A stretch of DNA of 64,000 nt. Source: Bacillota bacterium. Lineage in GTDB: Bacteria; Bacillota; UBA994. A model generated the notes under the pieces. That model had not been told where the DNA came from and searched no databases. It worked only from the letters and a program-made list of their open reading frames with translations. Positions within the stretch are counted from its first letter, which is position 1; every line of letters starts with the position of its first letter. Shown piece after piece: positions 1,406 through 46,939 of this stretch. The DNA lies in the NCBI GenBank assembly GCA_018333655.1, contig JAGXTJ010000055.1:103659-167658 (forward strand), in the 5' to 3' direction. The position numbers and the translations under genes were made by a program.

Positions 1406-1415
1406 TGTCTTCCTC

Positions 1416-2204: not shown

Positions 2205-2218
2205 ACCTTGTCCTCCGC

Positions 2219-3358: not shown

Positions 3359-3455
3359 GTCTTCATCACTCCATGTAGCTATTCTCGCAGTATTTGTGCG
3401 ACATTTCACTTACGATGTTAATATTTTCACTATTGTTTCTGAAAAAAGGAATGTA

Positions 3456-18476: not shown

Positions 18477-19211
18477 TTAGGCGAGAGTCTCGGTGCGCGA
18501 CCCCACAGAGACAAAATCGCGCAGAAAACCTGGCCGAGGGTTCGCCAGCACCACACTCGGTGGGCCGTCAGCTATGATACGGCCATCATTCATGACCAAC
18601 AGGCGATCGGCGAGATGAGCGACCTCACTGTAAGAGTGAGTCACCAACACGCCGGTCGTCCTGCTTTCTGTCAGCCAACCACGCAAATGACGCAGGATGT
18701 AGGCTTGCGACTCCACGTCGAGGCCAGAAAATGGTTCGTCAAGAAATAGTATTTGTGGGCTAGTGATTAGTGCGCGCGCCAAACTCACCCTTGCTCCTTC
18801 GCCGCCGCTCAGCGTCTGTGGGAGACGTGCGGCCAGGTTTTCTGCCTGCACGAGGGAGAGCCACTTGCGCGCGGCAATTTCAGCCTCACCGCGCCCCATA
18901 CCCCTAAGGAGCAAAGGAAGGGCGACATTGTAGAGCACATCTCCCCGCAAGAAGGCAGGGCTTTGGAAACCATGGGCATACTGACGCATAATTGCCAGAC
19001 GTTCATGCTGTAGGTTTTTCACTTGCCCATGCAGCACGTAAGCAGAACAAGAAAAGGCGGCCAACAGGCCTAAGGCCTTAACGAGGGAAGACTTGCCCGC
19101 GCCATTTCGCCCAATAATGGCCACAAATGGCCCCTCGCTCAAACAAATTCTCTCAATGCCGAGAATCTTACGTTCGTGGCGTACCATATTAATATCACGC
19201 ACTTCAAGCAC
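18477..19211 (-). CDS. ABC transporter ATPase of a molybdate/tungstate-type (ModC/TupC-like) system
   Basis: It has Walker A GRNGAGKSS, LSGGE and LFLDEP. I trimmed the start to GTG 19211 (an AAGGAGA RBS), which overlaps the permease stop by 8 nt. Confidence 0.7.
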   Translation of the reverse strand: MLEVRDINMVRHERKILGIERICLSEGPFVAIIGRNGAGKSSLVKALGLLAAFSCSAYVLHGQVKNLQHERLAIMRQYAHGFQSPAFLRGDVLYNVALPLLLRGMGRGEAEIAARKWLSLVQAENLAARLPQTLSGGEGARVSLARALITSPQILFLDEPFSGLDVESQAYILRHLRGWLTESRTTGVLVTHSYSEVAHLADRLLVMNDGRIIADGPPSVVLANPRPGFLRDFVSVGSRTETLA

Positions 19212-19905
19212 CCCGGTATCTCCTTTGCTGCATAAAAGTGAGCACCATGGCCACCACATAAGAAAAGGTCATGAGTATAAAGCTCAAGGCGAGGGCTAGG
19301 TCGAAGTTGCCGCGATTTACTTCGAGCACAATGGCTGTGCTCAAAATGCGCGTTTGCCCGCGGATATTTCCCCCCACGGCCATGGCCGCGCCAACTTCAG
19401 CAACCACAGCCCCAAAACCAGCCAGACAGGCCGCGATAATGCTAAGGTGCGATTCGCGAATTACGAGCCATAGTAGCTGCCAACGATTCGCCCCCATCCC
19501 GGATAGTTGCGCCGAAACAGCATCATCTACCTGCATCACCCCTGCCATGGTGAGAGCCGCCACCCGCGGCATGGCGATAACCACCTGTGCTATTACCAGA
19601 GCAGTGGGCGTGTACATGAGACCGAGAAAGCCGAGCGGCCCGCTGCGCCAGAGGAGCAAACTAACCCATAGGCCCACCACTACGGGCGGCAGGCCTAAGG
19701 TAGAATTCAGAAGGCTCTGCACCACCTTTCGTCCGGGGAAGGCGGATAGCCCCAGAAGTGTACCCAAGGGAATGCCTAAAAAAATGCTGACTAAGGTCGC
19801 CGTGCCGGTGACTTGTACCGTGAGCCAGGCAATTTGATAGAGCTCACGGTCACCATAGATCATCATTTCAAAAGCTTGTACGATCCCCTGCCAAATTAGC
19901 CCCAT
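19204..19905 (-). CDS. ABC transporter permease (ModB/TupB-like, binding-protein-dependent fold)
   Basis: It is a 233-aa 5-6 TM protein with an EAA-like loop. No substrate-binding protein gene is adjacent. Confidence 0.65.
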   Translation of the reverse strand: MGLIWQGIVQAFEMMIYGDRELYQIAWLTVQVTGTATLVSIFLGIPLGTLLGLSAFPGRKVVQSLLNSTLGLPPVVVGLWVSLLLWRSGPLGFLGLMYTPTALVIAQVVIAMPRVAALTMAGVMQVDDAVSAQLSGMGANRWQLLWLVIRESHLSIIAACLAGFGAVVAEVGAAMAVGGNIRGQTRILSTAIVLEVNRGNFDLALALSFILMTFSYVVAMVLTFMQQRRYRGA

Positions 19906-19948
19906 TGCCGCTCACCTCATCTCAATGCCCTGGGGAAAAGCAAAGCGC

Positions 19949-21163
19949 CTACTCTTGTGGCAGCAACTGATTTAGTAAGATCCCCACAATCGCCGCGAGG
20001 CCAATGCCTTCGAATTTTACGCCGCCCCCCAAGTTAAAGGCCGCGCCCCCTATCCCTAGGACAAAGATTACCGAACTGACGATAAGATTGCGGGACTTAG
20101 ACATATCAACTTTGTTTTCGACGACGGTTCTTACGCCGATAGCCGCAATCATGCCGAATAATATGATGGCGATGCCCCCCACAACCGCCGTAGGTATTGT
20201 GGATATAAAGCCGCCTATTTTTTGTACAAAGGCGATGCCGATAGCTAGTACGGCAGCCCAGCGCATAATGACAGGATGCCAGACACGGGTCAAGGCCAAG
20301 ACTCCAGTGTTCTCAGAGTAGGTCGTATTCGCTGGCCCGCCAAAAAAGCCCGCAATGGCTGTGGCTATGCCGTCACCGATAAGGGTGCGATGGAGCCCTG
20401 GGTCTTTAACAAAGTCATTTTCGACTGTCGTGCCCACAGCCATAATGTCCCCAAAATGCTCTACCGCAGTGGCAATCGCAATGGGTGCCATAATGGCAAT
20501 GGCAGCTAGGTTAAAGGTCGGCCAAGTGAAAGGGGGTACGGCCAACCAGGCTGCCTCTTGTATGGGTGTAAAGTCGACTAGACCAAAGACAAGAGCCGCG
20601 AGATACCCTCCCGCCAAGCCAAAGAGGACAGGTACCATTTTGAAGAAACCCTTAAAAAACATCGACACAGAGACGACTATAGAAAGAGAGAAAATAGCAA
20701 GACCCCAGTTCCCTGTCGACATTTTAATGGCCACGGGTGCTAGACTAAGACCGATAACGGCGATGACCGGGCCGATAACTATAGGTGGAAAGAGACGATG
20801 AAGAATACCTGGGCCCACAAAGTAGACGAGCGCGGCCACGCCCAAGTAGACAAGCCCTGCCGCTATAATACCACCTTGTGCCGCTCCCAGCCCATGCTCC
20901 TTAATGACTAACTGCAGCGCTGCGATGAAGGCAAAAGAACTACCGAGAAAGACCGGCACTTTGCCCTTCGTAACCCAATGAAAGAAGAGCGTCCCCACCC
21001 CAGCGGTAAAGAGGGCGACTGAGATATTGAGACCGGTGAGTATAGGCACGAGCACGGTGGCGCCGAACATGGTAAAGAGATGCTGCAAGCCAAAAACGAG
21101 TTGTTTGTTTAAAGAAATCTCGTCTCCCGCACGTATGGCGGGTTCTCTCTGTAGGTCTGACAT
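19949..21163 (-). CDS. NCS2-family nucleobase permease, UraA/PyrP (uracil permease)-like
   Basis: LQHLFTMFGATVLVPIL and GKVPVFLGSSFAFI closely match the E. coli UraA motifs LQHLFAMFGATVLVPVL and GKIPAYLGSSFAFI. Confidence 0.75.
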   Translation of the reverse strand: MSDLQREPAIRAGDEISLNKQLVFGLQHLFTMFGATVLVPILTGLNISVALFTAGVGTLFFHWVTKGKVPVFLGSSFAFIAALQLVIKEHGLGAAQGGIIAAGLVYLGVAALVYFVGPGILHRLFPPIVIGPVIAVIGLSLAPVAIKMSTGNWGLAIFSLSIVVSVSMFFKGFFKMVPVLFGLAGGYLAALVFGLVDFTPIQEAAWLAVPPFTWPTFNLAAIAIMAPIAIATAVEHFGDIMAVGTTVENDFVKDPGLHRTLIGDGIATAIAGFFGGPANTTYSENTGVLALTRVWHPVIMRWAAVLAIGIAFVQKIGGFISTIPTAVVGGIAIILFGMIAAIGVRTVVENKVDMSKSRNLIVSSVIFVLGIGGAAFNLGGGVKFEGIGLAAIVGILLNQLLPQE

Positions 21164-21223
21164 CAGTAATTCACCCTTTCTCTTGGTATATCTCCGTTCG
21201 CGCCAGGCAGCTAATCTCTCACC

Positions 21224-23593: not shown

Positions 23594-23619
23594 GCTGACC
23601 CCTCCGCTCTGTTGTGTGG

Positions 23620-24087
23620 TTAATTATCTTTGGCGCAGGCTTTACTCACTGCCACCACAATGCGTTCGTAGCCTGTACAGCGACAGAGATTGCCACTTAA
23701 GCCGTCTCTTATTTCTTGCACCGTAGGTGCTTTCTGACGCGCGAGCAAAGCTTTAGCCGAAAGTAACATGCCGGGCGTACAGAAACCGCACTGTATGGCG
23801 CCTTCATCGATAAACGCTTGCTGCAGTCTATCTAGCTCCAAGTGATTCGAGAGCCCCTCAACCGTCACCACGCTTTTTCCCATAACCTCAAGCGCCAGGA
23901 CAAGACACGAGTTCACGCTCTCGCCATCAAGAAGTACGGTGCAAGCCCCGCACTCCCCACCCCCGCACCCTTCTTTGGTGCCGGTGAGATCAAGGTCATC
24001 CCGCAGCACATCCAAGAGTCGGGCAAAAGGCTCGACCATAAGCCCTACAGCTCGCCCATTCAGCGTGAAACTAAGTTGTCTCTTCAC
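23620..24087 (-). CDS. Molybdenum hydroxylase [2Fe-2S] small subunit
   Basis: It has CGGGECGAC and CGFCTPG motifs in a 155-aa protein. Confidence 0.85.
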   Translation of the reverse strand: MKRQLSFTLNGRAVGLMVEPFARLLDVLRDDLDLTGTKEGCGGGECGACTVLLDGESVNSCLVLALEVMGKSVVTVEGLSNHLELDRLQQAFIDEGAIQCGFCTPGMLLSAKALLARQKAPTVQEIRDGLSGNLCRCTGYERIVVAVSKACAKDN

Positions 24088-24964
24088 TCGACATGCCTCC
24101 GTTTTCTCGCGGTGAACAAAGCGACAAAAGCTCCCTAAGTGCGCGCCCCGTTTGCACGGCCACTAAGTGGCGACGGTATTCTGCCGTGGCACGTAAATCA
24201 GTTATCGGCGATGCCGCGGCCACTACTTGGGACACGACTATTTCTAGGTCTTCCTTCGTCCAGACGGCCTGTGGCCTTATCTCTTCCACCGCCAGCACGC
24301 GCAAAGGTTTTGGCGCAACAGCGCCTAGGGCGACGCTGATCCTCCTGCCTGGCAGTAGTAGCATGGCGACCCCTACTTGGGCTAGGTCGACGGCCTTAGT
24401 GCGCGCTGTCTTAATATATACACTGACCGCTCTCTCATCTAAGAAAGGCAGTTCAATGCTCTTAACGATTTCACCCTGCTTAAGAACAGTTTTGCCCGGT
24501 CCAAGGAAGAAGTCACACAGGGGCACACTCCGCTCTCCAATAGCGCCTACTATGGACAAAGCTGCTCCCAAGATGAGCAAGGCGGGCACAGTGTCAGCCG
24601 CAGGGGAGGCATTACATATATTACCCCCTAGACTGGCCCGATTTCTGATTTGGTAGCTGCCTACAGAATGAACGGCCTGTCGCAAAGCCTGAAACCCTAG
24701 TCTATCTGGCAGAAATCGCTCAATCTCATTAAGGGGGGTAGCGGCACCAATACTGATTCCCCCGTCGCTATTCGCGCCTATTGCTCGTGACCCAGGTAGA
24801 TGCTTGATGTCAACGAGGTATTCCGGCTTAAGATGCCCCTCGCGACAGCGGACTAAGATATCTGTTCCTCCGGCATAAACCTTCGCTGTGTACGGGTTAG
24901 AGGCGAGAAAATTACAAGCTTCAGCCCATGAGTTCGGCACCAGGTACTCAAATTCATTCCACAT
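24071..24964 (-). CDS. Molybdenum hydroxylase FAD-binding medium subunit (CoxM/XdhB-like)
   Basis: It is a 297-aa FAD_binding_5-type protein (…AGGTDILV…) whose 3' end overlaps the 2Fe-2S gene. Confidence 0.8.
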   Translation of the reverse strand: MWNEFEYLVPNSWAEACNFLASNPYTAKVYAGGTDILVRCREGHLKPEYLVDIKHLPGSRAIGANSDGGISIGAATPLNEIERFLPDRLGFQALRQAVHSVGSYQIRNRASLGGNICNASPAADTVPALLILGAALSIVGAIGERSVPLCDFFLGPGKTVLKQGEIVKSIELPFLDERAVSVYIKTARTKAVDLAQVGVAMLLLPGRRISVALGAVAPKPLRVLAVEEIRPQAVWTKEDLEIVVSQVVAAASPITDLRATAEYRRHLVAVQTGRALRELLSLCSPRENGGMSSEETT

Positions 24965-24968
24965 GCGC

Positions 24969-25889
24969 TCACTCCTTACGCACGGGCTTAAAGGGGCTTG
25001 GGGCCTTAACTAAAATGCCCTGGTAACTCAGGATATTTCGGTCCTCCAGATGATTAAAGAGCATGGGGGAGTCTATGCCATAGCTCGCATACTGCAGAGG
25101 GTCCGGGTCAAGCTCCGCGTAGAGCAATTCTTCTTGTGTTCGCGCCTGTGCTAAGCGCTCGGCTATGGGGCTGACTATCATGCTATTGCCAAAGTAATGT
25201 ACATTTCCGGCATCTGTTCCCACCGCATTGACGGCGATGACATAGACATGGTTGTCGTAGGCGCGTGCGGTCGTGGTTAAATTCCAGATGTCGAAGCTGC
25301 GCAAAAAGGCAGAGGGTCTGACAATAATTTCGGCGCCCTGCATGGCCAACACTCGCGATAACTCCGGAAAGTCGCCATCGTAGCAGATAATCATGCCCAC
25401 TTTGCCGAAGAGAGTGTCATAGACCTTAGCTTCGGTGCCTGCTGTCGTCCACCCACCGCGCTCCACCTGCTCGCCGGGGAAAGGATGCGTTTTGCGGTAG
25501 ACACCCACTACTGCGCCTTGTGGGTCGATAAGCGCTGCCGAATTATAGACCACCCCGCGCTCCTGCCCACGCTCATAAGTAGGAAAGACTACATAGACCC
25601 CTAGGCGCTTGGCAGCGCTACATATGGGGTCGGTAAGTCGACCGGGGATGAAATCTACTCTATCCCACAAGTCTTCGGCAGACATCGCCGGCATAAAACC
25701 GGTGGTGACAGACTCGGGGAAGACGATTAGCTCTGCCCCCGTCTTAGCCACTGCTTTATCCATCCACGCCACAACCTTGTTTAGGCTACCCGGTATGTCA
25801 TTAGGCAGGGGGGCTATTTGCACCCCTGCGACTTTCACCCTACGCACCAAACATCTCCCCCTCAGATGCCAGACTATGGGTGCACCCAC
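24969..25889 (-). CDS. Carbon-nitrogen hydrolase (nitrilase superfamily) amidohydrolase
   Basis: The catalytic triad context is FPE…YRKTHPF…ICYDGDFPE. It is the first gene of the hydroxylase operon. Confidence 0.8.
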   Translation of the reverse strand: MGAPIVWHLRGRCLVRRVKVAGVQIAPLPNDIPGSLNKVVAWMDKAVAKTGAELIVFPESVTTGFMPAMSAEDLWDRVDFIPGRLTDPICSAAKRLGVYVVFPTYERGQERGVVYNSAALIDPQGAVVGVYRKTHPFPGEQVERGGWTTAGTEAKVYDTLFGKVGMIICYDGDFPELSRVLAMQGAEIIVRPSAFLRSFDIWNLTTTARAYDNHVYVIAVNAVGTDAGNVHYFGNSMIVSPIAERLAQARTQEELLYAELDPDPLQYASYGIDSPMLFNHLEDRNILSYQGILVKAPSPFKPVRKE

Positions 25890-26085
25890 AGGCCAGCACA
25901 GAATGCTCCCCTAATCTATGTCAATTATTAATAATTAATTCGCCCCACAGGCTTGCAATCCTCTGTGATGGAGACCAAAAATTCTTAATTCGCGCAACTT
26001 TGCTCGGCCAAACTTATCTCTTGCGCAATCTGGTGGCTAGTGTCACAATACTCTTGAAAAAGACTTTAAGGGGAGGGGATTTGCC

Positions 26086-26874
26086 ATGCTAAACAATTGG
26101 AACCAAGTCAAAATGTACGACCTCACGCAGCCGCTCAGTCACCTCACTCCAGCCTGGCCCACCTACGAGCCACTGCAGATTAAATTCTTTAAGCGCCTCT
26201 GCCCAAACGGCGCTAACGGCCAAATCATTACCACGAGCAACCATGTCGGCACACACCTAGACGGCTCCCTGCATTTTTGTACGAACGGTCGTGACATCGC
26301 CTCTATTCCCCTGACCGATTTAATCGGCCCCGGCGTGGTCGTCGATTTAAGCGACATGGCCGAAGACTATGGTCTCTATACGTCGAAGGACATTACTGAC
26401 CGCGTGGAGGTCAAAGAAGGCGACATCTTACTTATACATACGGGCTATATAAAATACTCCTGGGACCAGCCAGGAGCAGATGAAGTGCGGTACATGGTAA
26501 AGCACCCTGGGCCAACGCGCGAATTCGCCGCTTGGTGCCGCAAAATGAAACTGAAGTGGATCGGTGTTGACTGCGGCAGCGCCGACCACCCCATGAACAC
26601 CAAGATTCGCGAATGGGCTCCCCGCGAGGCCAAAGAAGCCGACCTTTACTTAAGACGCAAGTACGGACGCTCGCTCGAAGAAACTTTCCCCGGGGAAGAC
26701 TACCAGCTCATGCACCTTGACCTCTTCCCGGACGACATTATCCACGCCGAGAACGTCGGCGGTGAGCTAAGCAAAATATTAAATCGTCGCCTTATTATTG
26801 GCTGCTTCCCCTGGCGTCTCGTGGGCGGTGAGTCTTCTATCTGCCGCATCGTCGCCTTTGATGCCCCCGAGTAG
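26086..26874 (+). CDS. Cyclase-family (kynurenine formamidase / isatin hydrolase-like) metal-dependent hydrolase
   Basis: It is a 262-aa protein with HxGTHxD…H motifs (SNHVGTHLDGSLHF). It is transcribed divergently from the hydroxylase operon. Confidence 0.65.
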   Translation: MLNNWNQVKMYDLTQPLSHLTPAWPTYEPLQIKFFKRLCPNGANGQIITTSNHVGTHLDGSLHFCTNGRDIASIPLTDLIGPGVVVDLSDMAEDYGLYTSKDITDRVEVKEGDILLIHTGYIKYSWDQPGADEVRYMVKHPGPTREFAAWCRKMKLKWIGVDCGSADHPMNTKIREWAPREAKEADLYLRRKYGRSLEETFPGEDYQLMHLDLFPDDIIHAENVGGELSKILNRRLIIGCFPWRLVGGESSICRIVAFDAPE

Positions 26875-26901
26875 TAGCCTTTGATTCACTTTAGAGGAAG
26901 C

Positions 26902-27921
26902 CTACTTGCCGAAAGGGCAGACAGGGTAGCGACATACTTCGCAAGCAAGGCACAGTCCCCCATGCCCTAGGGCGACGAAATCGTCGCGGCTCACTCGCTC
27001 GCCGGCTAAGAGGCGCGGTAGAACCAGGTCAAGTATGGTCGTGGCACAGTACATAACGCAGCCCGGCAGACCAACAATGGGCACATCGCCTAGGTAGGCC
27101 AAAAGAAACATGGAGCCAGGCAAGACCGGCGCACCGTAGGAGACAAGCTCTGCCCCTGCTAGAGAGATTCCTCTCGGCGTGACATCGTCGGGGTCTACCG
27201 ACATGCCTCCACTCACCGCTACTATCTCTGCCCCCTCGTGGAGCAGGGATAGTATTTTTTTCGCTATTATCTCGCTATCATCTGGCACAATGATTTGGGG
27301 CAGCATGGGGCAATCGAAGGCCGCCATCTTGGCCGCCATAACTGGACCGAACTTGTCGGCAATGCGCCCATGGTAGACTTCATTGCCGGTGGTAATAAGA
27401 CCTACTGTTTTTCGCAGCAAGGGCTTAGTCCATAGCACTGGGCCCTGGCGAGAGCACAGCTCTTCGACTTGGGCAATGCGCGCTAGGGGAATAACCAAGG
27501 GTATGACGCGCGTTCCCGCTAGCACCGTCCCCGCCTGAACTACTTGGTTACTATGGCGTGTAGCGACAATGACCTCGGGCACGGAGTTAACACTGTGCAA
27601 GGCGGGCACATTGACTTTTAGTAAGGAGCGCTCGCGCGCTAAGAAGTTAATCTTTCCTTCGGAGGCGCCCGTCAAGGTTATCCCTTCCCCTGCACAAGCC
27701 ATGGCAATGCGCCGCGCCGCTTCATTCTCATGCAACAGCCCTACTTCCTCGCGCCAGACAAAAATATGCTCTTTGCCCAGATCCTGCAGCAGGGGTATGT
27801 CTTCAGCCCTCACTTGATGGCCCTTCTTAAAAGCCACCCCCTTAAATTCGCCGGGCACTATTCTCGTAATGTCATGGGCGAGGATAGCCCCCACCGCGTC
27901 CTGCACTCTAATCTTTTGCAT
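26902..27921 (-). CDS. Molybdopterin-binding (MogA/MoeA MoCF_biosynth-like) domain protein
   Basis: GLITTGNEV…VSGGMSVDPDDVT resembles the MoCF domain. The C-terminus is Cys-rich, and it is the last gene of the maturation operon. Confidence 0.5.
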   Translation of the reverse strand: MQKIRVQDAVGAILAHDITRIVPGEFKGVAFKKGHQVRAEDIPLLQDLGKEHIFVWREEVGLLHENEAARRIAMACAGEGITLTGASEGKINFLARERSLLKVNVPALHSVNSVPEVIVATRHSNQVVQAGTVLAGTRVIPLVIPLARIAQVEELCSRQGPVLWTKPLLRKTVGLITTGNEVYHGRIADKFGPVMAAKMAAFDCPMLPQIIVPDDSEIIAKKILSLLHEGAEIVAVSGGMSVDPDDVTPRGISLAGAELVSYGAPVLPGSMFLLAYLGDVPIVGLPGCVMYCATTILDLVLPRLLAGERVSRDDFVALGHGGLCLACEVCRYPVCPFGK

Positions 27922-27948
27922 GCTTGCCGCCTCCCTAGCTCACAGCAC

Positions 27949-29331
27949 CTATAGCCCATTCTCGACTAATTTCACGTAGTCCTCTCGGCAATCAACGTCC
28001 TCTATCACAGCCTTATCGTCCACCGCCACCCCAAACAGGCGCTCACTATGGCGGCTCATCACTTCTTTACCGCCTGTATCGCCCTGCAGAAGGCGCAGCT
28101 CGCCATAGAGATCGGGGGGAAAGATGACGGGGTTGCCACGCCTTCCGTCAAAGAGAGGGTAGACAATAGCCCTCTCCTGCGACCAATATTCGCTTAGCAA
28201 GGTATCCACCGTGCTCCATCTCAGGCCGGGCTGATCACCTAGTGCAAATAAGACCCCGCAACGAGGACTAGTGATGTCGCTTTCTATGTGGGCTAGCGCG
28301 GCACGCACCGAGAGACCTAGGCCAGAGCGGTACTCCCTATTGTCGACTACCTCCACGGGTAGACCAAGTAGCGCATTGCGCACTTCCTCACCGCGATGGC
28401 CCACCACCACTAGCACCCTGCCCAAAGAAGACCAGAGCAGCGCTTCCACACTATGCCGCACTAAGGGCTTGCCTTGCCAGGGCAAGAGTAGCTTTTCTCC
28501 GTTTAAGCGACTCGATAAACCAGCGGCCAAGACCACACCTACCACCGCAGTCTCCGGGGGCCACACTTCCTCTACGGGGCGAGGAGCACGCGCCTCACCA
28601 ATGGCGACAGATAACGGAGCCAGGTAGCGCGCCACCAGCCGACCATCTTTCAGCAAATCATTGGCTGCCTCTGTCTGCATGGCACCCGTGTTAAGCCAAA
28701 CAAGATGTCGTGCCGAGGGGGCTTGCCCTTTAGCCAAAGAGACAGCTCGCTCAACTACCTGGGCCAGCACTAGGGGTGTTAGCCGCTCGCCTAGCGCTGC
28801 ACCAATTAGTTCTGCCACGACTTCAGGGCGGTGCACCACAGCGGCGTCGAGCGGTTTTCGCAGAGCCAGAAGGGAGGCCACCGTGACAACTAGAGTGGCG
28901 CTTGGCGGTACGACAGGTTCGTGAGGAAGGTGCCCCTTAAGAAGCCTGCCTGCGGCGCCGTCTGCTTCAACCAGTATCACGCACTGCGGAAAAGCACTCT
29001 GTAGCCGAGCAACCCAAGCACTGGGGATGCCAAAGAGCTTCTGCTCATGGTCCTGCCCTGCCCCGAGGACCACGATATTCTTGTCTAGCCACTTCGCTTG
29101 TAGCCCTGCGACAGCATCCTCTATGGTAGTCGCCAAGATAGTGGCGTCGGCAAAAGTGCCCTCCGGAAAGGTGCGGTCAGGATGATACATTTTAGTCGTA
29201 GTGGTTACAAGGACCGGGCCCTGGCTGGCTAGCTCACTAGCCAGTCGAAACATCAGGGTGGTCTTGCCGCCGGCACCTATAAAGGCGACAATGTCGCCCT
29301 GCTCTACTCGCATACTTTGCCTAATATTCAC
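27949..29331 (-). CDS. Fusion of a YqeC-like selenium-dependent hydroxylase accessory protein (P-loop GAGGKTT) and a MocA/MobA-like molybdenum cofactor nucleotidyltransferase
   Basis: The N-terminus has a P-loop (IVAFIGAGGKTTLMFRLA), and the C-terminus has an LAAGLSSRLNG… NTP-transferase domain. Confidence 0.65.
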   Translation of the reverse strand: MNIRQSMRVEQGDIVAFIGAGGKTTLMFRLASELASQGPVLVTTTTKMYHPDRTFPEGTFADATILATTIEDAVAGLQAKWLDKNIVVLGAGQDHEQKLFGIPSAWVARLQSAFPQCVILVEADGAAGRLLKGHLPHEPVVPPSATLVVTVASLLALRKPLDAAVVHRPEVVAELIGAALGERLTPLVLAQVVERAVSLAKGQAPSARHLVWLNTGAMQTEAANDLLKDGRLVARYLAPLSVAIGEARAPRPVEEVWPPETAVVGVVLAAGLSSRLNGEKLLLPWQGKPLVRHSVEALLWSSLGRVLVVVGHRGEEVRNALLGLPVEVVDNREYRSGLGLSVRAALAHIESDITSPRCGVLFALGDQPGLRWSTVDTLLSEYWSQERAIVYPLFDGRRGNPVIFPPDLYGELRLLQGDTGGKEVMSRHSERLFGVAVDDKAVIEDVDCREDYVKLVENGL

Positions 29332-29352
29332 CTTGGCACCGCCTTTAGGCCC

Positions 29353-30444
29353 TTACACCCGCTCTATTAAGACCAGCATCTTACCACCGCAGGCTAAACC
29401 TTCGTCTTCCATCACCGGGCCTGTCATATCGATGGCATACCACTCCGGGCAGCCATCTGCTATGACTGTTAGAGCCTTACGGCGCACGTCGGCCTCTACA
29501 CAGCCCCCGCCAATCGTACCCACTGTCCTACCGTCAGGATAGATGAGCATCTGCGCCCCTGCCTTACGCGGTGCAGACCCCCATGTACTGACGATGGTGG
29601 CTACTGCGAGAGGCGTGGCTTGGTCTTCCTTCGTAACTGCTTGTACCACCGCCAGATCAGCGGCACATCCCCCTGCCCACGGGGCTATCGACCGCGAGGG
29701 ACGATTCTTGAGGCTAGTAATCTCAGCCAGAATACTAACGGCGATTTCGGCAGGTGTCTCAGCATTGATTTCTAACCCAATAGGGGCGTAGAGAGCAGCC
29801 ACTCTTTCGTTAGCGAAGCCCTCAGCGAGGAACACTTCGCGCATTTCACGCACCCTGCGGCGACTACCGATCATGCCAAGGTAAGCAATGTTTGCCAGGA
29901 TAAGTTGACGCACGCACATGGCATCATGGCGATGCCCGCGCGTGACGACCACGGCGTAAGTTTGGCGAGTCAAGATGAGGGAGGCGAGTGCTTGGTCAAA
30001 CGGCCCGCAAATCACCTCTGCCGCCTCGGGGAAACGCGCAGCGTTAGCAAAGAAAGGGCGGTCATCAATGACCGTGACTACAAAGTCGAGCAAGGCTGCC
30101 ATCTTAACGAGAGGCTGCGAAATATGACCGCCCCCACAGACAATGAGCCGCGCTGGTGGTGAATACACTATGGCCACATAGGTGTCGGTATCGCCAGGAG
30201 CAAGTTGAAACTGCACCACAAGCTGTGGAGCGCGTGCCTGCGACAAGAGCGCACTGCGCGTCTTAGTCTCTAAGGGGGGCAGCACAGCGTCCCCGAAAGT
30301 AGTGCCGAGCAGCTCTAAGGTGACTTCCTTGGCGCTACCGGATAGAGAATAAAGTGCTCTCTGCCGCGCCGAACTGACCAGCACGGCAGATTTCCCCTGC
30401 CTAAGCTGCTCCCACAAGGCTCCGTAAATCTCCCTGTCAGTCAT
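29353..30444 (-). CDS. xdhC: XdhC/CoxI-family molybdenum hydroxylase maturation protein
   Basis: There is an XdhC_CoxI N-domain and a Rossmann C-domain (LIVCGGGHISQPL). Confidence 0.75.
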   Translation of the reverse strand: MTDREIYGALWEQLRQGKSAVLVSSARQRALYSLSGSAKEVTLELLGTTFGDAVLPPLETKTRSALLSQARAPQLVVQFQLAPGDTDTYVAIVYSPPARLIVCGGGHISQPLVKMAALLDFVVTVIDDRPFFANAARFPEAAEVICGPFDQALASLILTRQTYAVVVTRGHRHDAMCVRQLILANIAYLGMIGSRRRVREMREVFLAEGFANERVAALYAPIGLEINAETPAEIAVSILAEITSLKNRPSRSIAPWAGGCAADLAVVQAVTKEDQATPLAVATIVSTWGSAPRKAGAQMLIYPDGRTVGTIGGGCVEADVRRKALTVIADGCPEWYAIDMTGPVMEDEGLACGGKMLVLIERV

Positions 30445-31301
30445 GAACGACTACTCTCCTCTCGCTCTTCTAGTTGCTCTAACCACATTACGGCCTCCAG
30501 CACTCCTCCACCAATGGCGCGAGCCTTGTCCGAGATAGTAAAACAGTCTTCATAAGAGGCAGAGGGGTCTATATCACCTATCTTCTGGCCCGCCGCGACC
30601 CATAGACGGGGGAAGAGCAAGCCCCTAATTCTGCCTGCCCATGCGGCGAGCACCTCTTGGTGCACACCATCACGACACACTAGGCCTACCCTCTCTCCAC
30701 AAGCGACTAGGTCGCCGATGCTCTTCTCTGGCCACCACTCCCCGTCGCGCGGTGCGCGCAAGAGCCTTTGCCAACTTGCACCCGCCACGGGAGCCGGGCA
30801 ACCGGTGTTCGCCTCTGCACTACCCGCTAATAGAACGCGCCCTAAGTGATGCCCACGGTTAGTCTCTACTACGGCATGCACATCGACCCCAGCGGTAAAA
30901 CCCGGGCCTAGTGCCACCACTCTTGGCGCTAACCCACGGTGCGTACCGGTGGCCTGCTTGGCCATTATGGCATCTACGACCACCTGTGGCTTTAACGCTT
31001 CTATAGTGTGTGTGGTAGCATCAATAATCAGGGGAATCTGCCCTGCGGACCAATAGCTATGCAAAAAAGCCCACGCGTCCTTAGAATCGGTAGGCAATCT
31101 GTCTTTAACTAGTACGCCACAAAGGTCTTCCACCTGCACCTGCCCACAGTAGCAAGCAGAAGCCAAAGATACCGTCCGCCTAACTACCGTAGGCAATTCT
31201 TGCTCTAGCAGGAGGAGCCCAAAACCTGCCCGCCACAGCCTCTGGGCAACACCTGTGGCGAGGTCACCTGCACCGCGTATGACGACAAGTGGCTTTTTCA
31301 A
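30441..31301 (-). CDS. YqeB-like selenium-dependent molybdenum hydroxylase system protein
   Basis: It has a Rossmann-like N-terminus (VVIRGAGDLATGVAQRL). The context is XdhC / YqeC, and it overlaps xdhC by 4 nt. Confidence 0.5.
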   Translation of the reverse strand: MKKPLVVIRGAGDLATGVAQRLWRAGFGLLLLEQELPTVVRRTVSLASACYCGQVQVEDLCGVLVKDRLPTDSKDAWAFLHSYWSAGQIPLIIDATTHTIEALKPQVVVDAIMAKQATGTHRGLAPRVVALGPGFTAGVDVHAVVETNRGHHLGRVLLAGSAEANTGCPAPVAGASWQRLLRAPRDGEWWPEKSIGDLVACGERVGLVCRDGVHQEVLAAWAGRIRGLLFPRLWVAAGQKIGDIDPSASYEDCFTISDKARAIGGGVLEAVMWLEQLEEREESSRS

Positions 31302-32491
31302 ATGGCGCCAACATCCTTAAGCCGCCTAATCTCGGCCTCGCTCAGCCCTAAATCGCGTTCCAGTACCTCGGCCGTGTGCTGCCCAAGCAAGGGCGAGGGC
31401 CTGCGCACCTTGCCCACAGGGGTGCCCGAAAGTTTAATCGGACAGGCTGCCATTTTCAGCTTGCCGGCAAGGGGGTGAACTACTTCTTCAATCATCTCAC
31501 GCGCCGCCACCTGCGGGTCAAGCAGCACTTTGTCAATAGCGTTGATGGGACCACAGGGTATTCCCGCCCCGTCAAGCAGGGCGAGCCACTCTTTTGCCGG
31601 GCGTAGGGCGAAAATGTCCCCGAGTAGCGTTTCGAGTACCCCCCAGTTTTGACACCGCCCCGCGTTCGTGCTAAAGCGTGCATCAGCAATTAGCTCCTGC
31701 CTACCTACTAGGCGACAAAACTGCGCCCACAAATTATCATTACCGATGGCTATGACGAAAGGCTCGTCCGCGCCCTGCACGGTGGTGAAAGGCGCGATAG
31801 AGGGATGCCTGTTGCCAATGCGACTAGGCACCACACCGCTCACTTCGTACCGCGTAATGGCGTTCTCTAGAACAGCCACCTGTGAATCTAGCATGGCGAC
31901 ATCGACCATTTGGCCTAGCCCCGTAACATGGCGATGACTGAGTGCTGCCAAAATACCGATCGCGGCAAATAGCGCCGCGTTTATGTCGCCGATAGACGCA
32001 CCCACCCGCGTGGGAGGACCCTCGGGCGTACCGGTGATACTCATGATGCCACCCATGCCCTGCACCACTACGTCGTAAGCCGCTTTATGCATGTAAGGCC
32101 CCGAATGACCAAAGCCCGAAATGGCGGCATAGATCAGCCGCGGGTTTATCTGTCGCAAGACATCGTAACCTAGCCCTAGCTTCTCCATCGTCCCCGGGCG
32201 AAAGTTCTCGACCAAGATATCGTACTGCCCGATCATTTGTCTGAATATGTCTTGTGCTTCAGGCAATTTGAGGTTTAGAGTTATGCTCTGCTTATTGCGA
32301 TTAATGCTCATAAAGTAGGCGCTTTCCGTGCCCAAAAATGGCCCAAATGCTCGCGCGTCGTCGCCAACGTCAGGCATCTCTACTTTGACCACCTCGGCAC
32401 CTAAATCAGCCAAAAGCATGGTGCAATATGGCCCTGCCAGCACCCGCGATAAGTCGAGAACCTTAATCCCCTCTAATGTCATAGCGCACAT
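31298..32491 (-). CDS. Family III CoA-transferase (CaiB/BaiF family)
   Basis: LSRVLAGPYCTMLLADLGAEVVKVE is the classic family III N-terminal motif. It overlaps yqeB by 4 nt. Confidence 0.85.
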   Translation of the reverse strand: MCAMTLEGIKVLDLSRVLAGPYCTMLLADLGAEVVKVEMPDVGDDARAFGPFLGTESAYFMSINRNKQSITLNLKLPEAQDIFRQMIGQYDILVENFRPGTMEKLGLGYDVLRQINPRLIYAAISGFGHSGPYMHKAAYDVVVQGMGGIMSITGTPEGPPTRVGASIGDINAALFAAIGILAALSHRHVTGLGQMVDVAMLDSQVAVLENAITRYEVSGVVPSRIGNRHPSIAPFTTVQGADEPFVIAIGNDNLWAQFCRLVGRQELIADARFSTNAGRCQNWGVLETLLGDIFALRPAKEWLALLDGAGIPCGPINAIDKVLLDPQVAAREMIEEVVHPLAGKLKMAACPIKLSGTPVGKVRRPSPLLGQHTAEVLERDLGLSEAEIRRLKDVGAI

Positions 32492-32642
32492 CAGGCGTTC
32501 CGCCTCCCCTCAAATTCTAATGCTGAACTATTCTAACAATTTATCTTGCCCGCTGCCTACTGTCAATTGTTATCAAAACTTAGGCGCCTTGCCGCTACTT
32601 GTATCGCCGCCTGCACGACACAAGGGGCATCTCCAGGCCTTG

Positions 32643-33818
32643 CTAAAAGTAATCCAAAAAGGCACAGGGTTTCTTGGGCACTAGGGTCTGCAGGGTTTCT
32701 AAGGCTCGCTTGCTACCGCGAATCAAGCCGCTTTCATGCAGAAATTCCGGCCGCTGACTGCCCAAAAAGGCAGCGGTAAAGGCGTTGATGTCCATAGACA
32801 GACCATCAGCATGCTGACAGGCGGTCTCAAGCGTTGCCGCTTCTTGTGCCGAGTACGTGACCCCTTGCGGCGAAATCGTAAAGAGTGCGTTGTTACAGTG
32901 GACACTCGTATCACGCACGCCCAAAGTCAAGTTCACGTGCTTTTGTGCTAGGTACTGCTCCAAAAACTCTTTCACCATGACCACCTTGCCCATAAAATCC
33001 GGCATAATCTCCATTTTAGCTGCCGGATTGCGCCAGAGAAATGGCATTGATTCAGGGCCAGCGAGAGTGATTTCTACCCTGGTGACCATCGAATCATGAT
33101 TAGCGATGAAGTTCCACAGACCCCGCCGGCTCTCTTCGTCAAGATAGACATACTCGTCAACCTGCAGCATCTCGCCGCTAATTTGATACTGCAAGTAGCC
33201 CCTTGGTTCGCGGGCTTCGTTAAAGTAGATGGCGAAAGTTGTATTGTTGAACTTAGTGTAATGCCACCATTTTTCGGAGCGCACCAGCATGCCACTGTAT
33301 TTCTCGGCGAATTTATGATAGATCAAATTTAGAATGCTAATATTTTCCTCCGAACTTATCCTCTCCACCTGCCCCGGAATACCTTGATAGTGAAAGAGAT
33401 CTTGTCTTGCCACGACAGCCTTCCTCACGTCGTTGATGATTTCATAGCCATAGCGACGATAGAAACTAATGTCAAAGGGATGGAGGTAGCTAAGCACCTG
33501 TCCGCTCTCACGCATGGCCAGCTCTGCCTCGCCTATCAGCCGATGGACTAAGCCCCGCCTCCTGTGTTCGGGATAGGTGGAAATGCTAGCCACACCACCC
33601 ATGCGGTAATCCTGCCCCTCTAGGCGTACTGCCAAGGGAATGACGTGGAGCTTAGCTACCATCTCCCCCTGGAAGTAGGCCCCCAAAATACGATGATCCT
33701 CCATGAAACGCGCCCGCGCTTGCCGCTTCTCGCCCTCCAGAACATACTTAAACGAGTATTCTGATAATTTAATGGCATCATCAAATTCGCTCTGACCGAT
33801 GCTTCTTACTTCATACAC
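32643..33818 (-). CDS. GNAT acetyltransferase, Eis-like three-domain architecture
   Basis: The N-terminal GNAT region (…HRRRGLVHRLIGEA…) is followed by a second GNAT-like and an SCP2-like C-terminal region, in a 391-aa protein. Confidence 0.6.
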   Translation of the reverse strand: MYEVRSIGQSEFDDAIKLSEYSFKYVLEGEKRQARARFMEDHRILGAYFQGEMVAKLHVIPLAVRLEGQDYRMGGVASISTYPEHRRRGLVHRLIGEAELAMRESGQVLSYLHPFDISFYRRYGYEIINDVRKAVVARQDLFHYQGIPGQVERISSEENISILNLIYHKFAEKYSGMLVRSEKWWHYTKFNNTTFAIYFNEAREPRGYLQYQISGEMLQVDEYVYLDEESRRGLWNFIANHDSMVTRVEITLAGPESMPFLWRNPAAKMEIMPDFMGKVVMVKEFLEQYLAQKHVNLTLGVRDTSVHCNNALFTISPQGVTYSAQEAATLETACQHADGLSMDINAFTAAFLGSQRPEFLHESGLIRGSKRALETLQTLVPKKPCAFLDYF

Positions 33819-34080: not shown

Positions 34081-34860
34081 CTAGTAGTGCCCTAGCAACC
34101 CCTTGCTACGGGCTATGCGTTCACTGACGCCGAAAAGCAGCACGCCTAGCCCTAAGTAAAATACTCCCACACCGACCAAGGTCACGAGGTGGACGGACTC
34201 TAATTCCCACAGGCGCTTGCCATGAATCATAACCTCGCGCAGCAGGAAGTTGGCCATAGAAAGGGGCAAGAAGCGAGCCCAGGGGAACTGTGCCCACGGC
34301 ACAGTGAGAAAGGCCAAGAAAACGAATTGAAAAATGGAGAAAAAGGCTTGTATGCGCTTGTAAACGAGGGCTAAGCCCCCCACGGCAAAACCGACGCCGT
34401 AGGCCGACATCAATGCGAGGGCAAAGATAGGCACAATGCTAACTAAATCGATGTGGAGCTCTTTTCCCGTGCTAACTAAGAGCAGCCCCAACATAATCGC
34501 TGCGTAGCCAAACTGTAGTACCAAGTTGCAGAGCAGGCTGTAGGCATTAAGCAGACTAAAACCAAAGGGAGAAATATATAGTTGCTCTAGCGTTCCTACT
34601 TGCGCTTGGGCATTTAAGTCCCAGGAAAGCTCACTGTAGGCCATGATCGACAGCGTCCACAAAAGGTAGCCGACGAGCATGCCCTCTAGAGTGTTCCCTG
34701 CGGCTAGTGCTGCGCCGCCTAAGTGCTGCGCTCCAAAAAACAGGATCATGAACATGGCATACATGGACACGATCATCGAGAGCGTGTTAAAGGCATAGCG
34801 CTTAAGCTCAATAATATTGCGGTAGAGAATCACTCTAAAGGCTACGAGGTGCCGTTGCAT
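34081..34860 (-). CDS. ABC-2 type exporter permease
   Basis: It is a 259-aa 6-TM ABC-2 fold protein overlapping the upstream ATPase gene. Confidence 0.7.
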   Translation of the reverse strand: MQRHLVAFRVILYRNIIELKRYAFNTLSMIVSMYAMFMILFFGAQHLGGAALAAGNTLEGMLVGYLLWTLSIMAYSELSWDLNAQAQVGTLEQLYISPFGFSLLNAYSLLCNLVLQFGYAAIMLGLLLVSTGKELHIDLVSIVPIFALALMSAYGVGFAVGGLALVYKRIQAFFSIFQFVFLAFLTVPWAQFPWARFLPLSMANFLLREVMIHGKRLWELESVHLVTLVGVGVFYLGLGVLLFGVSERIARSKGLLGHY

Positions 34861-35807: not shown

Positions 35808-35990
35808 ATCTTCATCCTCCCCATAGTCCACGGCCCTACTGCCAGACCGCGAAGCCCTAACATCTTTGTACGTGCGCTGACAGAACAAGTTTCCTGGCTT
35901 GCTCACCTTGACAAGCTTACGAGAGCAGACATACAATCCATCATAAGCTAATCTAGACAAGTCACTTGCCAAGAAAGGAGGTAGCCTAGC

Positions 35991-46935: not shown

Positions 46936-46939
46936 GAGT

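Follow-up and report, generated by a model that had tools for sequence, protein, structure and literature searches.

A molybdenum hydroxylase gene cluster of anaerobic bacteria that may encode an oxidative route from uracil to malonate

Genes of the cluster and their relatives

We describe a gene cluster in a stretch of 64,000 nucleotides of contig JAGXTJ010000055.1 from a Bacillota bacterium (this whole 64-kb stretch is referred to below as the window), in which the genes for a three-subunit molybdenum (Mo) hydroxylase lie with those for a nucleobase permease, two hydrolases, a family-III CoA-transferase and cofactor-maturation proteins, and which we consider as a candidate for anaerobic, oxidative pyrimidine degradation. 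The window was annotated from its open reading frame (ORF) map with Pfam and NCBIfam scans (Table 1). A preliminary description had listed for positions 18477–33818 a nitrilase, the FAD, 2Fe-2S and Mo subunits, an NCS2 permease, an ABC pair, a divergent cyclase and an operon with YqeB and YqeC, and the scans place all of these genes where it had put them.

One minus-strand run extends from 25889 to 18477 in the order CN-hydrolase, FAD subunit, 2Fe-2S subunit, Mo subunit, NCS2 permease, ABC permease and ABC ATPase; no gap or overlap between neighbors exceeds 60 nt. A second minus-strand operon (32491 to 26902) comprises the CoA-transferase, YqeB, XdhC, YqeC–MocA and the MoCF_biosynth-domain protein. 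The CoA-transferase at its head is absent from the preliminary description; its ORF overlaps yqeB by 4 nt, and the two are translationally coupled. A promoter-like site (TTGACA-17-TAAATT, 32566–32538) lies upstream of the CoA-transferase gene and is the only site worth noting from a promoter and terminator scan of the window, in which counts were near the shuffled expectation. No riboswitch or other Rfam family reaches its gathering score anywhere in the window. Genes proposed for the pathway continue past 33818: AllG and AllF lie 4.6 kb farther on and on the same strand as the cluster, with an unrelated ABC exporter pair and the PfkB and PsuG genes in between.

Table 1. Features of the window, with the cluster and its associated genes first and other genes below
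Feature	Position	Strand	Match	Proposed role or remark
ABC ATPase paired with the permease	18477–19259	-	ABC_tran	
ModB/TupB/CysT-type ABC permease	19204–19905	-	NF038017, 246 bits (cutoff 100)	
NCS2 nucleobase permease, UraA-like	19949–21163	-	PF00860, 308 bits	Proposed uracil/thymine uptake
Mo large subunit, xanthine oxidoreductase family, 789 aa	21224–23593	-	Ald_Xan_dh_C, MoCoBD_1, MoCoBD_2	Proposed uracil/thymine dehydrogenase
2x[2Fe-2S] small subunit	23620–24087	-	Fer2_2, Fer2	
FAD-binding medium subunit, 297 aa	24071–24964	-	FAD_binding_5, CO_deh_flav_C	
Nitrilase-superfamily C–N hydrolase	24969–25889	-	PF00795, 187 bits	Proposed malonamate amidase; alternatively ureidomalonate decarbamoylase
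Cyclase-fold metal hydrolase	26086–26874	+	PF04199, 123 bits	Proposed barbiturate ring-opening amidohydrolase
MoCF_biosynth-domain protein	26902–27921	-	PF00994, 77 bits, residues 175–305	Molybdenum cofactor maturation
YqeC fused to MocA-type molybdenum cofactor cytidylyltransferase	27949–29331	-	TIGR03172, 151 bits (cutoff 73); PF19842, PF12804	
XdhC-family molybdenum cofactor insertion chaperone	29353–30444	-	XdhC_C, XdhC_CoxI	
YqeB	30441–31301	-	TIGR03309, 307 bits (cutoff 220)	Marker of selenium-dependent Mo hydroxylases
Family-III CoA-transferase	31298–32491	-	PF02515, 445 bits	Proposed malonate CoA-transferase
PfkB kinase, pseudouridine-kinase-like	35991–36968	+	PfkB, 171 bits; pseudouridine kinase model best, 237 bits (cutoff 540)	
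PsuG (Indigoidine_A) fused to inorganic pyrophosphatase	36955–38394	+	Indigoidine_A, 443 bits	Overlaps the PfkB gene; unusual fusion
AllG/YlbE-type subunit	38410–39825	-	PF06545, 303 bits	
AllF/FdrA-type subunit	39826–41382	-	NF004760 FdrA, 473 bits (cutoff 433)	Proposed ureidomalonate carbamoyltransferase subunit
Acyl-CoA dehydrogenase, EtfB, EtfA	200–3409	-		
ORF without Pfam match	10132–10806	-		
TetR regulator and RND (ACR_tran) efflux pump	12578–16309	-		
Prolyl oligopeptidase	16441–18465	+		
Eis-like GNAT	32643–33818			Absent from the preliminary description
ORF without Pfam match	34081–34860	-		Probably a membrane partner of the next ATPase
DrrA-like ABC ATPase	34842–36077			
DeoD-type purine nucleoside phosphorylase	43814–44530			
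GerA/GerB/GerC-type spore germination receptor operon	44600–48562	-		
ORF without Pfam match	48578–49129	-		
ORF without Pfam match	57203–58924	-		

The FAD, 2x[2Fe-2S] and molybdenum cofactor modules of the hydroxylase are encoded by three adjacent genes, the architecture of the xanthine oxidoreductase superfamily. The Mo subunit probably starts about 16 codons inside its ORF, since homologues are 768–776 aa long. It scores under the cutoff of every NCBIfam equivalog scanned, including XdhA, PucD, XdhB and the selenium-dependent xanthine dehydrogenase (XDH). In bits against cutoff, the values are 567/994 for the alpha subunit of 4-hydroxybenzoyl-CoA reductase (4-HBCR), 553/780 for XdhA, 458/784 for PucD, 397/830 for selenium-dependent XDH, and 533/916 and 296/850 for the remaining XDH equivalogs. 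The nearest solved structure is likewise 4-HBCR alpha (1rm6, 365 bits), with the bovine and R. capsulatus XDHs at about 195 bits and nicotinate dehydrogenase at 256 bits in the N-terminal half and 188 bits in the C-terminal half. When the subunit is mapped onto residues 795–1285 of bovine XDH, a stretch verified against PDB 1fo4, E727 corresponds to the catalytic Glu1261 and R364 and F366 to Arg912 and Phe914; all are invariant in 27 sequences. No acidic residue follows GGGFGGK at the position of Glu802, which is occupied by a gap or an invariant Ala255, the Phe1009 loop is absent, and an arginine or lysine at position 331 lies one column off Arg880, an ambiguous correspondence. Because Glu1261, Arg912 and Phe914 are kept while Glu802 and the Phe1009 loop are missing, we take the enzyme to be a hydroxylase of this family and not a bona fide XDH, and the equivalog scores and nearest structure agree with this placement; a grouping with bona fide purine or xanthine dehydrogenases had been named in the preliminary description as contrary to its reading.

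4-Hydroxybenzoyl-CoA reductase itself was considered on account of these best NCBIfam and PDB matches and of the CoA-transferase nearby. It was rejected: the scores are far below cutoff, the catalytic Glu is kept, and the extra Fe-S insertion of the beta subunit is not indicated in the FAD subunit, of which the 4-HBCR beta model covers only residues 117–279 (114 bits, cutoff 404).

The hydroxylase is probably selenium-dependent, since the adjacent YqeB, YqeC–MocA and XdhC genes would provide for its maturation. YqeB and YqeC, which had been named as markers of this trait, both exceed their model cutoffs, and their genes lie at most 5 kb from the hydroxylase structural genes, the linkage expected of the selenium trait. 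The MocA half scores 151 bits with TIGR03310, under the cutoff of 186. YqeB also adjoins the cluster in five related loci (L007, L021, L051, L053 and L072), and no selD is found among the annotated ORFs of the window. In C. difficile, YqeB is genetically required for selenium-dependent use of xanthine and urate (PMC11448449).

The NCS2 permease appears to be of the uracil type and not of the xanthine type, as had been proposed. Its best NCBIfam model is the uracil permease UraA (372 bits, cutoff 477), followed by RutG (288 bits) and PbuX (219 bits), and against solved structures it scores 288 bits with E. coli UraA and 50 bits with the xanthine/urate permease UapA. It keeps Phe73, Glu241 and Glu290 of E. 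coli UraA, which together with His245 and Gly289 are the residues that contact uracil. It also has an E-N motif in transmembrane helix 10, the NAT-family signature of uracil carriers, as Q-N is of xanthine/urate carriers. The NCS2 permeases linked to related hydroxylases are of at least two sequence types; E-N is found in 56 of the 56 that are aligned at the motif (1 of 57 is gapped) and Q-N in none. The ABC pair next to the permease had been called TupBC-like and assigned to Mo or W. The generic part of that assignment stands, as the ABC permease passes NF038017, and the specific part does not: TupB (154/320) and ModB (98/183) are below cutoff, and no binding-protein gene is adjacent. The ATPase has generic best matches, with WtpC and ModC far below cutoff. 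The ABC permease is linked only in the closest relatives (L001, L002 and L007); the pair may import an oxyanion for the cofactor, a role that is uncertain.

The cyclase-fold hydrolase has an intact metal motif (HVGTHLDGSLH, compared with HxGTHxDxPxH), in which Ser replaces Pro. Its AlphaFold2 model (pLDDT 79, pTM 0.82) resembles kynurenine formamidases and isatin hydrolases about equally (TM-score 0.58–0.65, 18–21% identity), and the arylformamidase equivalog TIGR03035 gives 51.6 bits against a cutoff of 223. That a cyclic amide can be opened by an enzyme of the cyclase fold is known from isatin hydrolase (PMC6117287). The best 120 homologues listed are 69–96% identical and include Bacillota, Thermotogota and a Bathyarchaeia metagenome-assembled genome (MAG), and copies linked in related loci go down to about 60% identity. 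A 70-aa ORF just upstream of the cyclase gene (25880–26092) was judged non-coding from its composition only; L001 has a called gene of 72 aa at this place.

The CN-hydrolase has FPE, YRKTH and IICYD motifs (Glu-Lys-Cys) and probably starts near 25847. Among solved structures it comes closest to PH0642 and the P. abyssi 'nitrilase/beta-ureidopropionase' (112–118 bits), no NCBIfam equivalog is reached at cutoff, and the gene recurs beside the cyclase and CoA-transferase genes in related loci. CN-hydrolases act on linear amides or carbamoyl groups, and of the 'two ring-opening-type amidohydrolases' of the preliminary description only the cyclase-fold enzyme is therefore plausible as a ring opener. 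Neither the barbiturase/AtzD family nor an amidase-signature ureidomalonase appeared in Pfam scans of 57 window ORFs (all non-overlapped ORFs of at least 150 aa), and an amidase-signature gene occurs in only five related loci. With cyclase as ring opener, the CN-hydrolase would most economically be assigned as a malonamate amidase.

The AllF homologue is 38.6% identical to E. coli AllF over 511 aa and 48% identical to the cluster-linked AllF of a related locus (L003); the corresponding values for AllG are 45.5% and 57%. In E. coli, AllFGH is an oxamic transcarbamylase, that is, an oxalurate carbamoyltransferase (PMC11326118). AllH was not found in the window by tblastn or with a 46-member hidden Markov model (HMM) at E<=10, so two of the three subunits are present. 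Over about its first 50 residues, the AllG of the window resembles the C terminus of E. coli AllF (38% identity over 48 aa), and elsewhere this piece is a separate ORF of 54–59 aa between AllF and AllG (L006:18496–18675 and L087:7597–7767); a small module has moved between the two subunits.

The PfkB and PsuG genes could together convert pseudouridine to uracil and ribose 5-phosphate and are possible feeder genes. PsuG also adjoins the cluster in L007, a relative 80% identical. A DeoD-type purine nucleoside phosphorylase gene lies farther along the window.

Recurrence of the cluster and its probable link to malonate

Eighty genome loci were gathered with an alignment of the large subunit and annotated by family HMMs on six-frame translations, and conservation was counted over 44 non-redundant genomes of Bacillota, Chloroflexota and Atribacterota with at least 8 kb on both sides. 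The closest Mo subunit in the protein collection is 91% identical, on a contig syntenic with the window, and the nearest of the 80 gathered loci is from a Peptococcaceae MAG (80% identity). A cyclase gene is linked to the Mo subunit in 38/44 genomes, at least one of AllF, AllG and AllH in 37/44 (AllH in 33/44), NCS2 in 31/44 and PucR in 16/44; cyclase occurs with AllF or AllG in 32/44, and only 3/44 have neither cyclase nor any of the three. As the neighborhood is syntenic in the 91%-identical relative and its core recurs across phyla, the arrangement is not due to chance, and the conservation that the preliminary description had asked to be checked is borne out. For the hydrolases the outcome is divided, with firm linkage of the cyclase and weaker linkage of the CN-hydrolase (5/44).

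A view from the cyclase side is similar. Among 80 metagenome loci found with a cyclase alignment, 24 have full flanks, and these contain AllF or AllG (22), the Mo subunit (18), the CoA-transferase (12), NCS2 (12) and the CN-hydrolase (10). AllG is immediately upstream of the cyclase gene in 34 of 57 metagenome loci.

Gene order in individual genomes brings most of these families together. In a 65%-identical relative, one co-directional array runs PucR–AllH–AllF–AllG–CoA-transferase–cyclase–carbamate kinase–CN-hydrolase–FAD–FeS–Mo–NCS2, and L003 and L011 have the same co-directional order from AllH to NCS2. The array of Carboxydothermus islandicus (L010), AllG–CoA-transferase–cyclase–carbamate kinase–CN-hydrolase–MmdA–biotin carrier–OAD-beta–FAD–FeS–Mo–NCS2, holds almost every step of the route proposed below. 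In Anoxybacter fermentans the permease is separated from PucR–AllH–AllF by an MmdA-type carboxyltransferase, OAD-gamma, a biotin carrier and OAD-beta, and Acidaminobacter hydrogenoformans has XDH–NCS2–PucR–AllH–AllF–AllG–cyclase–CoA-transferase. In Moorella thermoacetica, pyrK–pyrD–pyrE are followed by AllH–AllF–AllG–cyclase–FAD–FeS–Mo–NCS2–PucR. The carbamate kinase, present in several related clusters, passes TIGR00746 (412 bits, cutoff 358).

Genes that could supply uracil are also found around the cluster. In five loci the Mo gene is immediately followed by a cytosine-deaminase-like gene, in a sixth locus such a gene stands two genes downstream, and Bmp-type nucleoside ABC genes occur in six loci, often close to it. 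Cytosine-deaminase-like amidohydrolases (PRK07572, 265–268 bits, below cutoff) were seen in L034, L047, L056 (9869–11122), L077, L078, L085, L094 and several metagenome loci, mostly of Chloroflexota; those not directly after the Mo gene are elsewhere in the cluster. Dihydroorotate-dehydrogenase-type genes lie directly upstream in L092 (3321–5765; Moorella, with PyrK-like, PyrD and PyrE) and L087 (2053–3165; PreA-like DHO_dh/Fer4), and may represent a second pyrimidine-related function or be mere neighbors.

The CoA-transferase module is present in 12 of the 44 loci, together with a CN-hydrolase in 5, carbamate kinase in 5, an amidase-signature enzyme in 4 and an MmdA-type set in 4–5. Fifteen loci have instead a trio consisting of a ~230-aa protein ('f10'), a thiolase-like protein and a DUF35/ChsH2-type OB protein; the two modules never share a locus. 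The trio occurs in Chloroflexota, Moorella (where it follows the array given above), Flavonifractor, Lawsonibacter, Christensenella and Anaerocolumna; the loci are L028, L031, L038, L049, L061, L062, L073, L075–L077, L080, L083, L084, L092 (18100–20305) and L094. The f10 family gave no Pfam or PDB match, with a profile included, and its GNAT-like RGLRIG motif was recognized by eye only.

The CoA-transferase offers a link to the carbon product. Among solved structures it is closest to SUGCT (319 bits) and YfdE (317 bits), and its homologues are very numerous. Orthologues 69% (L090) and 65% (L088) identical lie directly upstream of MadL–MadM, both of which are above their equivalog cutoffs. In Biomaibacter acetigenes (L088, 10001–16116) the order is CoA-transferase, MadL, MadM, MmdA-type carboxyltransferase, OAD-gamma, biotin carrier and OAD-beta; in a metagenome contig (L090, 10001–12866) MadL and MadM are followed by a biotin carrier only. 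Judged by its gene content, the L088 operon is one for malonate uptake, activation and decarboxylation, and both operons likely belong to an unannotated malonate fermentation system in which the protein named 'oxalate CoA-transferase' is the malonate activator. Malonate is a likely intermediate of the heterocycle clusters because the CoA-transferase orthologues sit in these MadL–MadM malonate-uptake operons, and the shared CoA-transferase, by its similarity, ties the heterocycle clusters to malonate or malonyl-CoA. The CoA-transferases inside other XDH-family clusters are 58–63% identical to that of the window, no higher than the orthologues of the MadLM operons (65–69%), and a third homologue, in Sporomusa rhizae, lies beside an NCS2 permease, PucR, AllH and AllF.

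An MmdA-type decarboxylase set is found inside six of the XDH-family clusters (L005, L010, L053, L055, L060 and L066), and its subunits (carboxyltransferase, biotin carrier and OAD-beta) are not in the window. Parabanate and oxalurate, as C2 intermediates, were also considered. They were rejected because the linked CoA-transferase and decarboxylase are of the malonate type, and decarboxylation of oxalyl-CoA is thiamine-dependent, not biotin-dependent.

A proposed route and its alternatives

We propose that the cluster provides an oxygen-independent oxidative route for uracil, and probably thymine, that would lead through barbiturate to malonate and acetyl-CoA, and we assign this reading a probability of roughly 0.6. 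The UraA-like permease would import the base, which PsuK and PsuG in this genome and the cytosine-deaminase-like enzyme in some relatives may also supply, and the Mo/FAD/Fe-S hydroxylase would add a hydroxyl group from water at C6 to give barbiturate. The cyclase-fold metal hydrolase would open the barbiturate ring to ureidomalonate, the C3 homologue of oxalurate. AllF/AllG-type proteins, with the participation of AllH in most genomes, would then use phosphate to split ureidomalonate into carbamoyl phosphate and malonamate, and carbamate kinase would convert the carbamoyl phosphate to ATP, CO2 and NH3. Malonamate would be deamidated to malonate by the CN-hydrolase, or by an amidase-signature enzyme in some relatives, and malonate would be converted to malonyl-CoA by the family-III CoA-transferase. 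Finally, an MmdA-type biotin-dependent Na+-translocating decarboxylase would yield acetyl-CoA, or propionyl-CoA from thymine. AllH, carbamate kinase and this decarboxylase are encoded in related clusters and not in the window. The net effect would be to make a pyrimidine fermentable, with substrate-level ATP and a sodium gradient.

Uracil degradation by way of barbiturate and ureidomalonate fits the cluster because it accounts for a uracil-type carrier, a Mo-dependent hydroxylation, an acylurea for an oxalurate-type carbamoyltransferase and an end in malonate. Thymine would give methylmalonate, which would suit an MmdA-type decarboxylase. An anaerobic, selenium-dependent oxidative pyrimidine pathway had been put forward in the preliminary description, and the comparison of genomes supports and extends that idea in outline; the step to be revised is the removal of the carbamoyl group, for which an N-carbamoyl-type amidase had been invoked. 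Of the findings named there as contrary to the idea, none that can be read from sequence was obtained: neither the permease nor the large subunit groups with xanthine-type proteins, and the cyclase stays linked in related genomes. The CN-hydrolase is more likely a malonamate amidase than an analogue of ureidomalonase, because decarbamoylation is more likely phosphorolytic, by the AllFGH-type enzyme and carbamate kinase, than hydrolytic.

Several observations weigh against this proposal. Every substrate is assigned from context, as are the individual steps, and the selenium dependence is read solely from yqeB and yqeC being adjacent. Within the window itself, the hydrolases, the CoA-transferase and AllF/G sit in separate transcription units, which would favor a fortuitous neighborhood, and tblastn and family HMMs (E<=10) found no AllH, carbamate kinase, PucR or MmdA decarboxylase in the 64 kb, so the pathway is incomplete there unless AllH, carbamate kinase and the decarboxylase lie elsewhere in the genome. 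Oxalurate is the one substrate so far known for AllFGH, and the window permease has Asp at UraA His245 and Ser at Gly289. The unexplained trio replaces the CoA-transferase in about a third of the clusters. Minimal clusters such as L006 have four enzyme types for five chemical steps, leaving either the amidase step or the ring-opening step with no assigned enzyme. The cyclase also occurs apart from the hydroxylase: in a Bathyarchaeia locus (L094) it lies with AllF, AllH, the trio and a cytosine-deaminase-like gene and with no Mo enzyme within 10 kb, and in an Omnitrophota locus (L095) it has no Mo enzyme nearby and adjoins an ornithine carbamoyltransferase (OTCase) gene. The only context to hint at purines is in a Thermotogota MAG (L093:7931–14566), where AllFGH is absent and the neighbors of cyclase–FAD–FeS–Mo are adenine deaminase and a second gene for an FAD subunit. 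The OTCase of L095 was considered as an alternative carbamoyltransferase and set aside, as it passes the ArgF cutoff and is probably a genuine ornithine carbamoyltransferase whose adjacency may be coincidental.

The best-surviving alternative keeps the same logic of hydroxylation, acylurea formation, phosphorolysis and a CoA-activated dicarboxylate and applies it to another N-heterocycle, such as a different pyrimidine derivative. The positions of the Mo subunit and permease below every curated equivalog cutoff, the deviations of the permease at His245 and Gly289, the two or more sequence types among the linked NCS2 permeases and the genomes with cyclase and no Mo enzyme would all accommodate it. 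However, malonate and a ureido group together indicate barbiturate-type rings specifically, C6 hydroxylation of uracil is already known for this enzyme class, and uracil-yielding genes (PsuG/PsuK and cytosine-deaminase-like) flank the clusters; we regard another substrate as unlikely.

A little less probable still is a purine pathway, in which the Mo enzyme would be a xanthine or hypoxanthine dehydrogenase, the cyclase the long-sought xanthine amidohydrolase or a hydrolase of a urate product, and AllFG would take a ureido group off 4-ureido-5-imidazolecarboxylate or oxalurate. The characterized selenium-dependent Mo hydroxylases all use purines or nicotinate, with YqeB needed for xanthine and urate in C. 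difficile (PMC11448449), and the known role of AllFGH is with oxalurate derived from purines (PMC11326118). Many clusters come with PucR-family regulators, adenine deaminase adjoins the Thermotogota genes, and the window has the DeoD-type phosphorylase. Against these points, allantoinase, AllC, AllD and AllE are not among the recurrent linked families in any locus, the permease is of the E-N type in all 56 aligned linked cases, and the large subunit fails all XDH models and lacks Glu802. A malonate-type CoA-transferase and an MmdA-type decarboxylase would, moreover, have no place in purine breakdown.

It is also conceivable, though we consider it improbable, that the cluster is a variant of the reductive pathway, with the cyclase as dihydropyrimidinase, AllFG phosphorolyzing N-carbamoyl-beta-alanine, and the Mo enzyme oxidizing malonate semialdehyde to malonate ahead of the CoA-transferase and decarboxylase. 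The xanthine oxidoreductase family includes aldehyde oxidoreductases, the xanthine-specific Glu802 is missing, and the cluster has DHO_dh genes at its flank in L087 (PreA-like) and L092 (PyrD-like). However, the dihydropyrimidine dehydrogenase and beta-alanine aminotransferase that such a variant requires do not figure among the recurrent linked families, AllFGH is known to act on an acylurea and not on an alkylurea, and it is with the permease that the Mo enzyme has its tightest linkage, suggesting action on the imported base. A chance assembly of a generic Mo hydroxylase and maturation genes with unrelated hydrolases and transporters, to which the separate transcription units and the location of AllF/G 4.6 kb away behind unrelated ABC exporter genes would lend themselves, is strongly disfavored and very improbable, as dozens of genomes from several phyla show the same set of families again near the Mo subunit and near the cyclase, in varying orders and often in one co-directional array.

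Returning to the oxidative uracil route, its parts can be put together into a broader reading to which we would give an even chance. The clusters would then represent a widespread, unrecognized pyrimidine fermentation in which the selenium-dependent Mo hydroxylase is the orphan uracil/thymine dehydrogenase, the cyclase a barbiturase non-homologous to the known one, and the AllFGH-type enzyme a ureidomalonate carbamoyltransferase through which the ureido bond is conserved in the form of ATP. (Methyl)malonyl-CoA decarboxylation would add a Na+ gradient, and the pathway would range from Peptococcaceae and Moorella to Anaerolineae and gut Oscillospiraceae.

The remaining genes of the window are listed at the foot of Table 1. 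The Eis-like GNAT, separated from the maturation operon by 151 nt and the promoter-like site, is probably a separate unit unrelated to the cluster. The TetR regulator with its efflux pump and the prolyl oligopeptidase border the cluster; their synteny is kept in L001, and nothing about them points to a part in the pathway. The acyl-CoA dehydrogenase and Etf set, in which EtfA has an N-terminal 2x[4Fe-4S] ferredoxin domain, looks like a Bcd/Etf type and is possibly electron-bifurcating. The germination receptor operon indicates that the host is a spore former, in agreement with its Peptococcaceae-like nearest relative. Four ORFs of 183–573 aa have no Pfam match.

Relation to known systems and implications

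The oxidative degradation of uracil is an old, poorly characterized aerobic pathway. In Rhodococcus and Mycobacterium it consists of a Mo/FAD/Fe-S uracil/thymine dehydrogenase (EC 1.17.99.4), barbiturase (EC 3.5.2.1) and ureidomalonase (EC 3.5.1.95). Up to ureidomalonate the proposed route follows the same chemistry, with C6 hydroxylation by a Mo/FAD/Fe-S enzyme and hydrolytic ring opening, and malonate would again be the carbon product. The means differ: the ring opener of the window is a cyclase-fold metal hydrolase with no barbiturase/AtzD match in the Pfam scans of the window ORFs, and where an amidase-signature ureidomalonase releases urea, AllFG(H) and carbamate kinase are predicted to take off the ureido group as carbamoyl phosphate. 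In addition, malonate would undergo activation and decarboxylation that conserve energy, the organisms carrying the cluster are strict anaerobes, and genes for the selenium cofactor are linked to those of the hydroxylase.

The carbamoyl-transfer steps are most similar to the oxamate branch of anaerobic allantoin degradation in E. coli, where AllFGH, an oxamic transcarbamylase, works with the carbamate kinase AllK (PMC11326118, PMC9843812). AllF and AllG homologues, with AllH and carbamate kinase often in the related clusters, and the conversion of an acylurea to carbamoyl phosphate and an amide with a yield of ATP would be common to both. Unlike that branch, however, the present clusters have no linked AllB, AllC, AllD or AllE (none is among the recurrent neighbors), and AllH is not in the window. 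The partners are instead a Mo hydroxylase, a cyclase-fold hydrolase, a uracil-type permease and malonate enzymes, and the predicted substrate is one carbon longer.

Purinolytic clostridia and Eubacterium barkeri have selenium-dependent Mo hydroxylases (xanthine dehydrogenase, purine hydroxylase and nicotinate dehydrogenase) that share with the cluster the xanthine oxidoreductase subunits accompanied by yqeB, yqeC, XdhC and MocA (PMC2276186, PMC11448449). The window Mo subunit stands apart from them with its 397/830 on the selenium-dependent XDH model, and the predicted pyrimidine class would be new among these enzymes. Malonate fermentation through malonyl-CoA is known from Sporomusa malonica and the MadLM malonate carrier from Malonomonas rubra. 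The CoA-transferase family and MmdA-type carboxyltransferase are those of the MadL–MadM operons, to which L088 adds a biotin carrier and OAD-beta, whereas in the proposed route malonate would arise inside the cell from a heterocycle and not by import, and the window has the CoA-transferase only. A reductive uric acid pathway in E. coli and C. difficile involves XdhD, YgfK, SsnA, YgeX and others, with an XDH homologue working reductively on urate (PMC12507026). There, too, a cluster for anaerobic nucleobase breakdown centers on an XDH homologue and includes steps that cleave a ureido group, but the gene set is wholly distinct, with no YgfK, SsnA, YgeW, YgeX or YgeY here.

In a literature search that covered mostly open full texts, so that earlier work is possible, we found no paper on an anaerobic oxidative uracil pathway, on phosphorolysis of ureidomalonate or on AllFGH outside allantoin metabolism. 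Comparative genomics gives good support to the view that the cluster represents oxidative pyrimidine degradation rebuilt from non-homologous, energy-conserving parts. To our knowledge, the reductive route is the only one by which uracil degradation has so far been found in anaerobes, and we know of no gene assigned to EC 1.17.99.4, the first enzyme of the oxidative route.

If the proposal is correct, EC 1.17.99.4 would gain a sequence, and the few substrates of selenium-dependent Mo hydroxylases would come to include pyrimidines. Three poorly understood families, namely the cyclase-fold hydrolases, AllFGH and a large 'oxalate-type' clade of CoA-transferases, would each acquire a second function, and uracil would become an energy substrate, providing ATP from carbamoyl phosphate as well as a Na+ gradient. 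Several carriers of the cluster are in culture, and the model is thus directly testable. The clusters are found in subsurface Bacillota, in Chloroflexota of wastewater and sediment, in acetogens and in Oscillospiraceae of the human gut, and with this broad occurrence the pathway could matter for the turnover of nucleic acids in anoxic environments and perhaps for the metabolism of uracil analogues in the gut.

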